Shown piece by piece: positions 1 to 6,000 of a stretch of DNA of 64,000 nt. The stretch lies in NCBI RefSeq assembly GCF_036507355.1, contig NZ_AP027877.1, one strand, 5' to 3'. Position numbers: made by a program. This DNA comes from Escherichia coli (GTDB lineage: Bacteria > Pseudomonadota > Gammaproteobacteria > Enterobacterales > Enterobacteriaceae). Numbering within the stretch: position 1 is the first letter of the stretch; each line of letters opens with the position of its first letter.

Positions 1-3000
1 TGTCTGGTAAAGAAAAGGGCAATCCTCATCAGAGAATTGCCCTTAGATTGTTGACCCGGAGCGCCTTATCTTGCCAGATGCGGCGTGAACACCTTACCCG
101 GCCTATAGGAATGTGCAGAATCACCCTGTAGGCCTGATAAGCGTAGCGCATCAGGCAATTTGGCGTTTGCCCTTAGTCACACTAACTTAATGGATCATTA
201 CCACTGAATACCGGCACCGAGTGCGGCGGAGTATTCACCCTGGCTATTGGTACTACCTTGTAATTTGTAGACCCAACGACCATTGGCGCTCACCATCGAT
301 ACACCTAAAGCAACTGCCGATTCACCGTTGTAAGTACCGCCACCAATAGAAGCCATGCTGGCACCTGGAGTGTAAGCCTGCGGCAGACCGGTCATTGCCA
401 TTGCAGAAGCGATACCACCGCTCAACTTGCTTTCAGTTTTAGACAGTTTGTTATCCATCTCAACCATGCGCTGATCGGTGTATTGCTTTGTTTCCTGCAC
501 GCTTTGCTTCAACTGCGCGTAGTTCACCGCGTCGTTGTTGTTCACACCTGCGGAAACGTTGCTGATGCGAGTCGTACCTCCGTTGCCACCACCGAGAGTG
601 ATGTTGCTGTAGTCGATAGAGCCATCCGCTTTGGTGTCGTAGCGAACGCCGCCTGCTTCAGAAGATTTCAGCTGCGACACGTTAACCGCATCGGTGGCAT
701 TAACACCGGCAGCTACGTTGGTGATACGGCGCTGGTTGGTAGAAGAACCCACAGAGATCGTGTTTTCTTCGTTGGCCACGGAGCCTGTACCCAGAGCGAC
801 GCTGTTGTCAGCGGCAGCAATGGAACCAGAACCAATCGCAACGCTATCTTTACCCTGGGCGTTGGCATCTACGCCATCGGTGTTGGTCTTGAAGTACTTG
901 GTGCTACCGGTGGTCACGATATCGCCAATACCGTTTTCGATATTAGTAACGCGAGTATCCAGATTAGTGACCTGATTGTTCAGGTTAGTAATGCTCTGGG
1001 TATTTTGCGCTACGCGCTCATCAGTGACTTTCAACTGACCCACGTTAACCGCATCGGTATCCGCTGAACCAGCTGCGACGTTTGTGATCTGGCGTTGACC
1101 GTCTTCACTACCGACAGAAAACTCACCTACAGAGTTCTGCGGTGCGTCCATGTTGTAGGCGGTGTAGCCAGTCTGTGCACCACGGGTGGTCTGAGAACCG
1201 TTACCCATTGCAATACTGTTTGCATGGTTTGCGCGTGCGTTACTGCCGATAGCAATACCGTTGATCGCATCAGCCAGAACCAGAGTGTTCAAACCGATAC
1301 CAATACCTGCATTACCATTAACGACAGTTTTCGCCCCCATTGCCAGCGAGTCTTCACCAACGGCCAGTGAGTCTTCTGCCGTTGAGTTGGCGTGATAGTA
1401 CTTGGTTGGCGTAGTGGCGACCGCTCCAATAGCGTTCTGCAACTGGCGAACCGTAACGGCGTCATGGGCTTCGGAACCATCGGCTACGTTGATGATTTGG
1501 CGGTACTTGCCATCATCACCAATCGACAATGCACCGAGCAGTTCGCCATCCGTGGTGTCATAACCAATCACAACACCTTCTTCTGACACGCTGGTATCAC
1601 GAGAACCTTTGGCAATCACACGGCTGGAAACGGAGCTGCTACCCAGCGCAATACCGGTATCAACGGTGCTGCTGCTGTTCTGACCAATGGCTACGCTGCT
1701 GGCACCAGACGCGACAGCGTTATAACCTACAGCTGTAGCGCCGACACCAGAGGCGCTTGCATCGTTAAAGGCTAAACCGTTGTCGTTAGTACGAACGTAG
1801 TTGATACCAGCGCCATTTTCTTCGATATAGGTTGCGTCGGTGTTACCAGCAAGCTGATTGATGATTTGGCTGTTCTGCTCAATCATCAAATTCGTCGCAT
1901 TCAACTGAGAACCATTCACTGCATCGGTGCTGTCCTCACTAATACTGCCATTAGCGACATTAGTGATGATGCTGGCTTTACCGTCATGGCTGGCATTGTA
2001 GGCTCCTGCGCCGCCATTGGCAGTCTCATCCCACAGCAGAGCGTTATCATCAAGCGCATCCAGGGCGTCACCGACGTTGTTGTACTCGGCGTTCGCAATG
2101 GTGTAAGTCGGTGCGGTGATGGTGCCGTCAGCGTTGACTTCTGCGTCACCACCCAGCGCATCGACAATGTACTGATTGGTAGTATAGAGTTGTGAGCCGT
2201 TCACAGCATCGCTGCTGGTGGCAGAGATTGCACCGTTAGCGACGTTAGTGATTACACTGGCCGCTTTATCTTTTCCGTGAGCGGCGCTAAATGCACCATT
2301 TTCACCGGCGTCCGCATCCCAGAGCAGAGCGTCATCAAGAGTGGTATCGATAGCATTCAGGGCATCACCGACATTATCGTAATCTGCGTTTGCGATAGTG
2401 TAAGTCGGCGCACTGATGCTGCCGTCAGCATTGACTTCGGCACCACCACCCAGCGCATCTACGACGTACTTATTGGTGGTATAGAGTTGCGAGCCGTTCA
2501 CAGCATCAGAGCTTGTGCTTGAAACATCCCCGTTTGCGACATCAGTGATCACGCTTGCGTCACCATTAGTACCGTGTTTGGCACTAAATTTATCTACGGA
2601 AGCGTCCCAAAGCAGGGCATCGCCGAGAGACGTGCTAAATGAGGAGTTAATCGCAGCCAGTGCATCGCCGACGTTATAATAATTTGTTTCACCGATTTTG
2701 TAGGTTGGACCGGTAAACACACCGTCAGTATTCACAGAAGCATTGCCGCCGAAGTAGGTGGCGATATTGCTGCTTAAGTCATAAAGCTGGCTGCCGTTAA
2801 TGGCATCGGAACTTGTTGCAGTGACTGTGCCGTCCAGGATATTGGTGATTTTGCTGGCGGTGTTGTTGCCATGAGCTGCCGTGAATACACCATTGTCCTT
2901 ATCCCATTTCAGCGCATCCTCACCAAGATTAGTCACCGTCTCAGTCAGATTAGAGATGTTGGTGGTGTTAGTGGCAATATTGGTGGTATTCGTCGCCACA

Positions 3001-6000
3001 GCATCGTTGGTGGTTTTCAGCTGGGAGCCGTTAACGGCATCAGTGCTGCCAGCCGTCAGGTCGGCATCTTTAACGTTGGTGATTTTGCTGGTGGCTTCTG
3101 TGCCGTGAGCTGCCGTGAATACACCATTGTCCTTATCCCATTTCAGCGCATCTTCACCAAGGTTAGTCACCGTCTCAGTCAGGTTAGAGATGTTGGTGGT
3201 GTTAGTGGCAATATTGGAAGTGTTAGTGGCGATATTGGTGGTATTCGTCGCCACGGCATCGTTGGTGGTTTTCAGCTGAGAGCCGTTAACGGCATCGGTG
3301 CTGTCAGCCGTCAGGTCGGCATCTTTAACGTTGGTGATTTTGCTGGTGGCCTCGGTGCCGTGAGCTGCCGTGAAGACACCATTGTCCTTATCCCATTTCA
3401 GCGCATCCTCACCAAGATTAGTCACCGTCTCAGTCAGGTTAGAGATGTTGGTGGTGTTAGTGGCAATATTGGAAGTGTTGTTGGCGATATTGGTGGTATT
3501 CGTCGCCACAGCATCGTTGGTGGTTTTCAGCTGAGAGCCGTTAACGGCATCGGTGCTGCCAGCCGTCAGGTCGGCATCTTTAACGTTGGTGATTTTGCTG
3601 GTGGTCTCGGTGCCGTGCGCGGCGCTGAATGCTTTCGCTGTATCATTCCACAGCAGGGCATCATCCTGAAGGTCACCAACGGAATCCGTCAAATTGGTGA
3701 TATTGGTGGTGTTGGTGGCAATACTTGCCGTATTCGTGGCAATGTTGCTGGTATTAGTAGCGATATTGGCGGTATTGGTCTCGACATCGTCATTGGTAGC
3801 TTGCAGTTGGGAACCGTTAACCGCATCCTTACTGGAGGCTGAAATCGTGCCATCCGCAACATCGGTGATTACGCTGGCAGTTGGGCTACTAGTACCATGA
3901 GCAGCGCTGTATTTGCCTTTGGTTTGGTCCCATTGCAGGGTGTTTTCATCAAGTACAGCGAGCGCAGCCCCTACGTTATTTTTGCTACCATTTTTTAAAT
4001 TGTAGGTTGGTGCTGTAACAGTACCGTCATCAACATCTACTGCAGCCCCTCCACCAAGCCTTTTTGCTACCGAGTCGCTAATGGCATAAAGCTGTGAACC
4101 ATTAATGGCATCGTAACTGTCAGACTTGATCGCGCCATTTTTCACATTAACGATCTTGCGTTTTAATGAACTATTGCCGACAGAGACGGTATTGTCTAAA
4201 TCCGCAATGGAATCTGCGCCCAGCGCGACAGAGTTAATACCGTTGGCACTGCTATTACTACCAAGCGCAAGACTCTTATCACCAGTTGCATTACTGGCTG
4301 TGCCTAAGGCAATGGTGTTTAAGCCTCTCGACTGGCTACCATTACCCAGAGCGATGGCATCCACGCCATCAGCTTTGTTGCCCTGGCCTATGGCGATTGC
4401 ATTATCTGCCAGAGCCTGGCTGCCATTTCCTAATGCGATAGTATTGACTTTATCGGCAAGGCTTCCGAACCCCATTGCCATGCTATTAGTCCCTTTTGCC
4501 TTCGCATTATTGCCAATAGCAGTTGCATTTTCAGCGGCTTCGGTCTCAGCACCCATCGCAATAGCGTTTAAGTGATTGTCTGCCAAATGCGAGGCTGTCA
4601 GTACCGCTAGCTACACTGCTACGCCCCAGGGCAATTGCGTTTTCTGCGGATGCGACGCTACTTGCACCCAGCGCCATTGAATACGCTTTTGACGCATTGG
4701 CGGTGTCGCCAAGAGCAATACTCATAATCTCAGTAGCTTTAGCTGCGTTGCCCAGCGCAATGGCTTTCTCGCCTGCCGCACTACTGCTTCTTCCCACTGC
4801 AATGGCATTCAGACCAGCAGCATTGGATTTATCCCCTTGCGCGATCGAATAATCACCACCCGAATTCGCGTATCGCCCAAGTGCCATCGAAAATTGACCC
4901 ACTGAACTTGACGATGCGCCCATAGCGATACTTCGTTGACCGGTTGAGACGGCATTAACCCCGAATGCCATTGAAGCCGGACCAATTGCATGGGTCATGG
5001 CGCCAATAGCGGAACTCCAGGTTCCTTCAGCGAAAGCTTTATAACCCACTGCAGTACTGGCACCATTACCATCTGTAAAAGCATTTGCCTGTGAATCCTG
5101 GCCTATAGCAACCCAGCCAGATCCTGTGCCAACAGGTGTACCAGGTTCATTACCTGTTGCCAGCGCTCCAAACGACGACAACATTCCACCCGCAACTAGG
5201 GCAGAAATTAACAGCTTACTGCGACCAGATTTCTTACCACGGCTCTTTGCTGTTTCACTGGCAACGCTATAACTGCCCGTCGCCGGATTCCAGATGACTT
5301 TAAATATTTTGTTCATTATTGATGTTCTCTATTCCTTGATATAAGCGCAGAAGCTGCATTTATTTTTTGTTTTTTCGCTGCCGAGTTTCAGCAGATTGAA
5401 CAGTGACGAACTGGAGATTGGCCATATTGATGGACAACTTCAGATACTTCAGGTTATTAGGCGAAACGCCTTTTAATGTCTTGCCATTGACCAGGCATTA
5501 ATTGCAGAGTGGAGTTCAGAGCGGTATTGAAAAGTAATTGTTGCCACTTCGCCAGAGCTTTGGCATCGGTGGGCCTTTCATTGCCCCATGTAGCATGAAA
5601 ACCAATATTTGATACGGGAACGCTTAATAGGTTGACCAGCGAAATACGAATAACGCTGCCGTTTTCAACTGCATCAATAGCCAGCACCCGACCCGCCAAA
5701 CCGACAGAGCCGTTATTTAAAATGAAGTATTGTGTTTGTGCTGGGTTAAATTCTGTGAAGACAAATTCATCCTGCTTTTCTTTAACCCCCTTCACCACAC
5801 TAGCAAGCGTTTTGGTACTACTTATGATGGCAGTTTGCTGTTTTTCAAATAGTTCTATCTTGCGTTTATCTTGTTCTTGTTGTTTTTCAAGTTGCTCTAT
5901 TTTACTTTTTTGCAACTCTTGCTGTTTGGAAAGATCGTCGATTAGTTTTGCTTTTCCAATATAGTCACACCCTGTCAACATGCAGAGTGGCGATATCATT

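Follow-up and report, generated by a model that had tools for sequence, protein, structure and literature searches.

The adhesin locus

The window, that is, the whole 64,000-nucleotide stretch of Escherichia coli DNA that was analyzed (contig NZ_AP027877.1), carries on its minus strand a gene for an EhaG-type trimeric autotransporter adhesin, split here into two overlapping ORFs (Table 1). The gene has lldP on one side and a sadB-like gene, yibL, and mtlR/D/A on the other, and the same gene order is annotated in nine E. coli genomes. This is the conserved sadBA position (PMC3953254): genes of the SadA/UpaG/EhaG group are recognized by having the mtl operon and yibL on one side, lldP on the other, and a sadB-type lipoprotein gene immediately upstream. 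The MtlD allele in the window carries R262H, and an exact look-up gave no match for it.

Pfam searches placed an ESPR domain (PF13018, E = 3.3e-16) at residues 1-48 of the ORF at 5316..4546 and a YadA_anchor domain (PF03895, E = 4.6e-19) at residues 1402-1462 of the other, downstream ORF. YadA_head stretches were found on both ORFs, together with 13 YadA_stalk stretches, and neck motifs of the DAVNxxQL type number 12 by a strict pattern and 13 by a looser one. Membership in the EhaG group is judged from locus and identity, as no EhaG or UpaG model was among the NCBIfam matches (the Ata, Vomp, EmaA, BimA, and YadA models fell far below their cut-offs). Within E. coli, the closest match, at 97.7% identity, is an intact gene of 5130 bp in O145 strain RM9872. 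The intact allele of the window's own lineage, found in assembly L011, encodes a protein that over aligned residues is 92% identical to EhaG of EDL933 and 77% identical to UpaG; through this allele, the window gene is closer in sequence to EhaG than to UpaG. RefSeq labels the closest alleles just "YadA-like family protein" and uses "ehaG" for genes 91-93% identical in DNA to that of the window. From its domains and position, we identify the gene as encoding a predicted trimeric autotransporter adhesin (type Vc secretion), which by its position is an orthologue of UpaG and SadA.

Table 1. Coordinates of the adhesin gene, its stalk units, and neighboring features in the window
Feature	Position	Strand	Remarks
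EhaG-type trimeric autotransporter adhesin gene	198..5316	-	Two overlapping ORFs here; Pfam ESPR, YadA_head, YadA_stalk x13, YadA_anchor
Downstream ORF, 1462 aa	198..4586	-	Head, stalk, anchor; without signal peptide
Three older, diverged FGG-insert-type stalk units	1926..2807	-	100, 99, 95 aa; 65-79% DNA identity among themselves
Stalk unit U4	2808..3041	-	78 aa, 234 bp
Stalk unit U3	3042..3296	-	85 aa, 255 bp; 100% identical to unit 4 of 14EC033 and CUWW06
Stalk unit U2	3297..3551	-	85 aa, 255 bp
Stalk unit U1	3552..3827	-	92 aa (276 bp): neck DAVNGSQL, five Asn-core heptads, DALL connector
Fourth FGG-insert-type stalk unit	3828-4112	-	
Shadow ORF, 323 aa	2871..3842	+	Codon-aligned antisense frame; not a gene
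N-terminal ORF, 256 aa	4546..5316	-	ESPR signal peptide and head repeats; premature end ...SLKRYCDGC (stop)
Site of 11-bp deletion in adhesin gene	4569..4570	-	GCCAGTGCAGC in gene orientation; shifts adhesin frame
sadB-like lipoprotein gene (DUF3251 / SadB-YajI family)	5457..6032	-	191 aa instead of 227; separate 11-bp deletion
11-bp deletion in sadB-like gene	~5481		Sequence concerned: GACATTAATCT

A broken adhesin gene and a truncated helper

No single uninterrupted frame leads from signal peptide to anchor in the window, where the two are encoded by the 256-aa and the 1462-aa ORF, respectively. The 11-bp deletion that separates them lies outside the repeats, 5' of the stalk, and has no flanking repeat. 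It is absent from all of the complete E. coli genomes searched (5426/5426) and from four near-identical public contigs, and an exact-sequence look-up returned no match on record for the 256-aa ORF. In L011, of the same lineage, the gene is intact and encodes 1709 aa. The break is very recent: beyond it, the frame has stayed fully open and does not differ from this intact allele. Most likely the stalk is not made here, and the repeats would no longer be translated into a secreted, anchored adhesin. Both the deletion and the copy number of the window are as read from the assembled sequence.

The sadB-like gene carries a separate deletion of the same length, and the resulting truncated allele occurs in at least 10 public contigs. 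A proposed role of SadB is to keep the adhesin's three chains, which are highly repetitive, in register as they are exported. The two independent deletions might be read as an ordered decay of the sadB-ehaG operon, in which the helper lost its C-terminal 41 residues first and the adhesin broke afterward. If this were true, with a stalk of three near-identical units misassembling without its helper and becoming harmful, the locus would provide natural genetic evidence for register-keeping by SadB. We regard this as improbable: in four other sequences of the same lineage that have the truncated helper, the adhesin is intact at the deletion site. Neither the adhesin frameshift nor the sadB-like truncation had been noticed in the preliminary description of this DNA.

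Anatomy of the stalk repeats

We delimited the stalk units at the neck motif and read them in gene orientation, that is, on the minus strand. Three tandem units of 85, 85, and 78 aa (255, 255, and 234 bp) occupy 2808-3551. U2 and U3 are identical at 245 of 255 nt (96.1%), with 10 differing sites, and U4 shows 93-94% identity to both of them when only shared columns are counted; it has one 21-bp heptad fewer, and its final ~50 nt have diverged. The preliminary description, which had reported three near-identical tandem copies of 78-85 aa, was accurate on this point. U1 is a more diverged unit (77-82% identity to U2, U3, and U4). Tandem Repeats Finder reported a period-255 array at 2965-3617 (2.6 copies, 96% matches, score 1215) and a second one of the same period at 2842-3472, and a repeat search of the window gave four 255-nt copies in register, with a spacing of 234/255/255. 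The longest exact repeat within the array is 62 bp. Repeats of 21 bp, earlier thought to follow the three units, are indeed present at 3700-3776 (period 21, 3.7 copies, 72% matches by Tandem Repeats Finder) but lie inside U1, as its Asn-core heptads, and so precede the three units in gene orientation. Further, shorter 21-bp repeats occur within U2 (3454-3493) and U3 (3199-3238).

In the unit translations, heptads of the form [I/V]-x-x-N-T-x-x, a motif reportedly defined by Hartmann and colleagues in 2009, follow the neck in register. A PDB sequence search matched the units to 2YO2 (E = 4.1e-21) and to 2YNZ (E = 4.1e-18; query 117-204, covering coiled coil, DALL, and neck), as well as to the Asn-core coiled-coil fragments 2WPQ (E = 2.3e-7) and 2WPR (E = 1.9e-6); the AtaA fragment 3WPA was also matched. 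2WPQ is a SadA coiled coil and 2YO2 comprises SadA 255-358 (PMC7688925), while DALL is an alpha-to-beta connector (2YNZ/2YO3) and a neck of consensus DAVNxxQL opens a coiled coil (PMC7247746). The domain assignment of the modules follows from sequence matches to these solved SadA fragments. Each module codes for a neck (DAVNGSQL), a trimeric coiled coil with Asn at core "d" positions, and a DALL connector; the I-x-x-N-T-x-x heptads give each unit 3 to 5 Asn layers.

Copy number in the window

Near-identical units may be collapsed or expanded during assembly, and the copy number of the window could be such an artifact. Two Logan contigs (k=31) of the same lineage, L012 and L013, both end at window position 3575, exactly 30 nt into a 52-bp exact repeat (3553-3604), where small-k graphs branch. 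Nonetheless, with a longest exact repeat of 62 bp and 10 sites that differ between U2 and U3, reads of at least 100 nt resolve the array. Moreover, the independent NCBI assembly L011 (a 111-kb contig) has an identical array; aligned to the window over 14,043 bp, it differs by 2 SNPs and a single gap, the 11 bp of the adhesin deletion. In 31 complete genomes, the full 5301-nt query aligned in one piece, with a span of 5312 bp, and therefore none of the 31 has a unit-sized indel. We thus consider an assembly artifact very unlikely. The earlier description of the repeats as an assembly hot spot holds to the extent that k=31 contigs break at the repeat edge; it does not hold for the array as a whole, which an independent assembly reproduced.

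The window is also collinear with an O145 genome, the only insertion-sized difference being 1.37 kb of extra reference sequence at 18764. The closest complete E. coli genomes show 99.5% identity over a 6-kb housekeeping stretch.

Length variation among strains

Unit number had been proposed for comparison among strains as a check on stalk-length variants, and it does differ: 12 alleles from other E. coli have 2-7 heptad-type units, with in-frame indels of unit or heptad size between alleles. The two O145 alleles RM9872 and RM12581 differ by 0 mismatches and a single 510-bp gap, with a 14-bp shared tract at the gap junction. The alleles of 14EC033 and CUWW06 differ by 1 mismatch and a single 63-bp gap. 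Two more allele pairs have single gaps of 234 and 468 bp in the array; with 139 and 149 mismatches, these pairs are too diverged for the gaps to be called recent events. For the two-unit deletion of RM12581/RM13514, a collapse during assembly is conceivable, the assemblies being older ones. At a larger scale, the locus is carried by 4158 E. coli genomes, a unit query matched 1-5 places per genome in 2046 genomes, and at least 15 distinct locus spans were present among 32 evenly sampled genomes. In a tree of units, the window array equals that of 14EC033/CUWW06 except for one missing unit; units of the UpaG type group within a strain, in a separate clade. That alleles differ by in-frame indels of 63, 234, 468, and 510 bp supports the reading of the stalk as length-variable.

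Surface adhesins with repeats and highly polymorphic alleles, such as this one, raise the possibility of a programmed contingency locus, in which repeat changes switch the adhesin on and off, as in phase variation. We find this extremely unlikely. Every unit length (234, 255, or 276 bp) and the 21-bp heptad are divisible by 3, and the indels seen between alleles (63, 234, 468, and 510 bp) are all in frame; repeat changes therefore make the stalk longer or shorter and leave expression as it is. The one frameshift, that of the 11-bp deletion, falls outside the repeats and has no repeat at its borders. A contingency locus is recognized by repeat changes that shift the reading frame or promoter spacing, whereas the changes seen here are all multiples of 3.

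The antisense open reading frame

The 323-aa ORF on the plus strand is a passive by-product of the repeats. It lies in the codon-aligned antisense frame, which stays open as long as no TTA, CTA, or TCA codon occurs on the sense strand; the sense codons that close it are TCA (3842) and TTA (2777). The same two bounding sense codons are found across alleles, in which the antisense open length is 269, 354, and 418-439 codons with 3, 4, and 5 units, respectively. Codon shuffling gave a longest open stretch at least as long as that of the 323-aa frame in 6.6% of cases. The ORF has no Pfam family above cut-off, and in the genomes examined RefSeq annotates nothing on the plus strand there. Its earlier dismissal as spurious and explained by the repeats is thus borne out, open length tracking unit number.

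A real overlapping gene, for whose sake the repeats would be kept, deserves next to no credence: a weakly expressed antisense ORF, oloz5029, has been reported inside EDL933 ehaG (PMC9927249), but it maps to window 4207-4572, in the head region and in a different antisense frame, and was rejected as the 323-aa ORF by position and frame, and the scaling with unit number, the codon shuffles, and the absence of a Pfam match or RefSeq annotation argue against such a gene.

Discussion

Very probably, the repeats belong to the fibrous stalk of an EhaG-type adhesin and are its most recent module duplications, with length alleles arising by in-frame change, in a gene that is frameshifted here. Unequal recombination or replication slippage between modules or heptads would add or remove whole modules or heptads; since modules are multiples of 3 nt and heptads are 21 nt, such gain or loss stays in frame. 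The stalk would then change in length with the fibre unbroken, and a population of alleles of differing length would result. Mechanistically, the indels presumably arise by RecA-dependent crossover or slippage, and stalk length may have some effect on adhesion by EhaG.

The locus resembles several known systems. SadA of Salmonella enterica lies at the same chromosomal position, flanked by the mtl and lld operons and downstream of a sadB-type lipoprotein gene; its stalk repeats, six in a row, measure 70-120 aa and share 55 to >90% identity (PMC3953254). Its stalk is likewise built of neck, coiled-coil, and DALL (and FGG) modules, and the window units match SadA fragments. The window differs from it in species and allele, in having three youngest units 93-96% identical in DNA, and in its frameshifted gene and truncated helper. 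EhaG of E. coli O157:H7 EDL933 (1588 aa) is a positional orthologue with the same module order, but has three heptad-type units (92, 85, and 78 aa) versus four in the window (92, 85, 85, and 78 aa), and its N-terminal head is shorter by 36 residues. UpaG of uropathogenic E. coli (1778 aa) shares the locus, the architecture, and tandem heptad-type units, in this case of 71-78 aa, two of which are 100% identical in strain CH4811. It differs in its lower protein identity to the intact lineage allele (77%) and in the separate clade formed by its units. Saa, BatA, and BadA/Vomp are likewise trimeric autotransporters with repeat-driven size variation, although they are not orthologous to the window adhesin, and BatA and BadA are built of TrpRing-GIN-neck modules. 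In BatA, the core module is repeated six times in perfect tandem, and length differences among trimeric autotransporters of Brucellaceae have been attributed to duplication and recombination (PMC7688925).

The modular, strain-variable stalk architecture of EhaG, UpaG, and SadA is already known, prior cataloguing being judged from reviews and from PMC3953254, and the present finding is an ordinary one, of little importance beyond good annotation. In annotating this genome, the adhesin should be labeled a frameshifted pseudogene, and the sadB-like gene should be marked as truncated. The repeats explain the length differences of EhaG and UpaG between strains, the breaks in small-k assemblies, and the long antisense ORF. 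Being variable, the stalk array is unsuitable as a conserved target in EhaG typing or vaccine work.

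Modular architecture of the adhesin stalk

The repeat region sits within the long minus-strand reading frame of a trimeric autotransporter adhesin, a single gene that is split in the window into a signal-peptide ORF and a downstream ORF (see the table of features). It lies at the conserved site of the sadBA operon and its E. coli orthologues (PMC3953254), with a DUF3251/SadB-type lipoprotein gene, yibL, mtlR, mtlD and mtlA on its 5' side and, as seen in related genomes, lldP on its 3' side; K-12 no longer has the locus, owing to a 5-kb deletion (PMC3953254). The closest E. coli match is a 1709-aa "YadA-like family protein" of O145 strains (97.7% DNA identity across the locus). 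Genes with 91-93% DNA identity to the window bear the RefSeq name ehaG, and the protein of the intact allele of this lineage is 92% identical to EDL933 EhaG and 77% to UpaG. NCBIfam gave no EhaG or UpaG model among its matches, with other named adhesin models far under their cut-offs. Judged by locus and identity, we file the adhesin as an EhaG-type allele.

Divided at each DA[VI]NGSQL neck motif, the stalk (4112-1926) resolves into a chain of eight modules, of which the four heptad-type units (U1-U4) form the repeat array. The preliminary description of near-identical tandem units was correct: U2 and U3 share 96.1% DNA identity, and U4, which is without one 21-bp heptad, is 93-94% identical to both over shared columns. 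U1 is 77-82% identical to the remaining heptad-type units, and the FGG-type modules 65-79% to each other. Tandem Repeats Finder detected an array of period 255 (2965-3617; 2.6 copies, 96% matches, score 1215) along with three arrays of period 21 bp, at 3199-3238, 3454-3493 and 3700-3776, and a repeat search found four in-register copies spaced 234/255/255. The 21-bp heptad repeats described earlier thus exist, in U1 and inside every unit, but U1 is upstream of the other units in gene orientation, not after them.

Features of the adhesin locus
Feature	Position	Strand	Description
sadB-like lipoprotein gene	6032..5457	-	11-bp deletion GACATTAATCT at ~5481
Signal-peptide ORF	5316..4546	-	256 aa; ESPR extended signal peptide, more head repeats
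Downstream adhesin ORF	4586..198	-	1462 aa; YadA_head repeats, 13 YadA_stalk stretches, C-terminal YadA_anchor
Module 1	4112-3828	-	95 aa, FGG type
Module 2 (U1)	3827-3552	-	92 aa, heptad type
Module 3 (U2)	3551-3297	-	85 aa, heptad type
Module 4 (U3)	3296-3042	-	85 aa, heptad type
Module 5 (U4)	3041-2808	-	78 aa, heptad type
Modules 6-8	2807-1926	-	100, 99, 95 aa, FGG type
323-aa ORF	2871..3842	+	antisense; codons coincide with sense codons

Each heptad-type unit runs from the neck (DAVNGSQL) through I/V-x-x-N-T-x-x heptads to DALKWD...FTAAHG...ITNV. A phmmer search against PDB sequences matched the Salmonella SadA fragments 2YNZ (E = 4e-18, aligned across coiled coil, DALL and neck), 2YO2 (E = 4e-21), 3ZMF and 2YNY, the SadA Asn-core coiled-coil fragments 2WPQ and 2WPR, and Acinetobacter AtaA 3WPA. 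A review gives DALL as an alpha-to-beta connector (2YNZ, 2YO3), FGG as a three-stranded stalk insertion (2YO2), and DAVNxxQL as the neck consensus at which a coiled coil begins (PMC7247746). The stalk of SadA itself is described with six repeats in a row, 70-120 aa long and sharing 55 to >90% identity (PMC3953254). Given these repeats and the solved connector and neck fragments, the stalk architecture is already known; the array is a known kind of feature in a known adhesin family.

Antisense reading frames

The long ORF opposite the array had been regarded as spurious, and our results agree: it is a shadow ORF whose length follows unit number and for which a Pfam search returned no family above cut-off. 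The frame is codon-aligned, and a stop can occur in it only where the sense strand reads TTA, CTA or TCA; these make up 21 of the 1463 codons of the downstream adhesin ORF, with none between 2777 and 3842. Across EhaG-type alleles with at least three units, the longest antisense open stretch ends at the same two sense codons and measures 269, 354 and 418-439 codons for three, four and five units; shuffling the gene's codons gave a longest open stretch at least as long as observed in 6.6% of cases. An antisense ORF published inside ehaG of EDL933, oloz5029 (PMC9927249), is not the same ORF, mapping to window 4207-4572 in a different frame. Its homologue here (4126-4575 and 4625-4828, plus strand) is 99% identical over residues 1-122, after which the frame is lost through an 11-bp deletion in the adhesin.

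Deletions in the operon and flanking differences

The window adhesin is without 11 bp, GCCAGTGCAGC, at ~4570 (4569-4570, minus strand) when compared with the intact O145 gene and with four near-identical public contigs of its own lineage (L011, L012, L013 and L015). This frameshift stops the signal-peptide ORF after 256 codons and leaves the remainder without a signal peptide. None of the 5426 complete E. coli genomes searched, and none of the four contigs, has the deletion junction, and exact look-up of the truncated product found no record. Since the downstream frame is entirely open and identical to that of L011, the break either arose very recently or reflects an error in the source sequence.

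The deletion in the adjacent sadB-like gene is a different one of equal length, which swaps the final 41 residues for 5 (191 versus 227 aa). At least 10 public contigs, among them NCBI GCA_905398585.1, carry this truncated form, which is therefore a real allele of the lineage. SadB boosts SadA surface display and has been proposed to hold the repetitive chains in register (PMC3953254). In THO-010 (L022, NZ_AP022540.1), both genes are annotated as pseudogenes: the sadB-like gene has an internal stop, and the adhesin gene has a frameshift, an internal stop and no C-terminus; operon decay thus recurs in other lineages.

Elsewhere in the window, a substitution at 8397 (mtlD, minus strand) gives MtlD R262H relative to L011 and L012, with no record of the exact protein in the public gene collection. 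The mechanical ORF 9499..8033 (minus strand) lengthens mtlD by 106 codons across the mtlA-mtlD intergenic region (9182-9499); with its repeated ...SPHGEG... strings in translation, the extension resembles REP-type palindromic elements more than it does coding sequence. At 18764, the O145 RM9872 reference has ~1.37 kb extra, absent from the window, which by position should hold a gene that lies between aldB and yiaY and is annotated as a "Fic family protein".

Unit number in the window and between strains

The array had also been flagged as an assembly hot spot. This holds for small-k assemblies, which break in it: two Logan (k=31) contigs of the lineage both stop at 3575, 30 nt (k-1) into a 52-bp exact repeat (3553-3604). 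The longest exact repeat within the array is 62 bp, however, and collapse at normal read lengths is unlikely. Looking up the truncated sadB product in public data led us to the 111-kb NCBI contig L011, which agrees with the window across 14,043 bp apart from two substitutions and a single 11-bp gap; its array is identical, and copy number is thus independently reproduced.

The proposed stalk-length variation is supported by the comparison of 12 alleles, whose unit arrays differ.

Heptad-type unit arrays of the alleles compared
Allele	Units (aa)
RM12581	92, 78
IPCEC31	92, 85
EDL933	92, 85, 78
H1827/12	92, 85, 78
Window, L011, RM9872	92, 85, 85, 78
CUWW06	92, 85, 85, 85, 78
14EC033	71, 85, 85, 85, 78
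AST215 (UpaG-like)	five units
CH4811 (UpaG)	five units
3702594 (UpaG-like)	seven units

Near-identical pairs differ by whole units or heptads. Between the O145 alleles RM9872 and RM12581 there are 0 substitutions and a single 510-bp gap, the exact length of two units; its junction is inside a 14-bp tract that the unit 1 and unit 3 tails have in common. Between 14EC033 and CUWW06 there is one substitution plus a 63-bp gap, the exact length of three heptads. Two further pairs, which are more diverged, each carry one gap, of 234 bp and 468 bp, corresponding to one and two 78-aa units, respectively. With one 255-bp unit as query, 2046 genomes gave matches at 1-5 places each (median 3), and at least 15 different locus spans occurred among 32 genomes sampled evenly down the whole-locus match ranking. 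In the unit tree, EhaG-type units cluster mostly by position, and the window array corresponds to that of 14EC033/CUWW06 minus one unit (U3 of the window and their unit 4 are 100% identical); units of the UpaG type cluster within strains, with two identical units in CH4811. On/off phase variation was rejected, because every change between alleles is in frame: this is variation in length.

Tandem repeats change copy number by unequal homologous recombination or replication slippage, and either process, acting between these repeats, could produce the observed indels, which coincide with unit or heptad boundaries and keep the frame. Gain or loss of whole heptads would keep the coiled-coil register, and that of whole neck, coiled-coil and DALL modules would keep the alternation of connectors, so that the fiber may remain foldable as its length alters.
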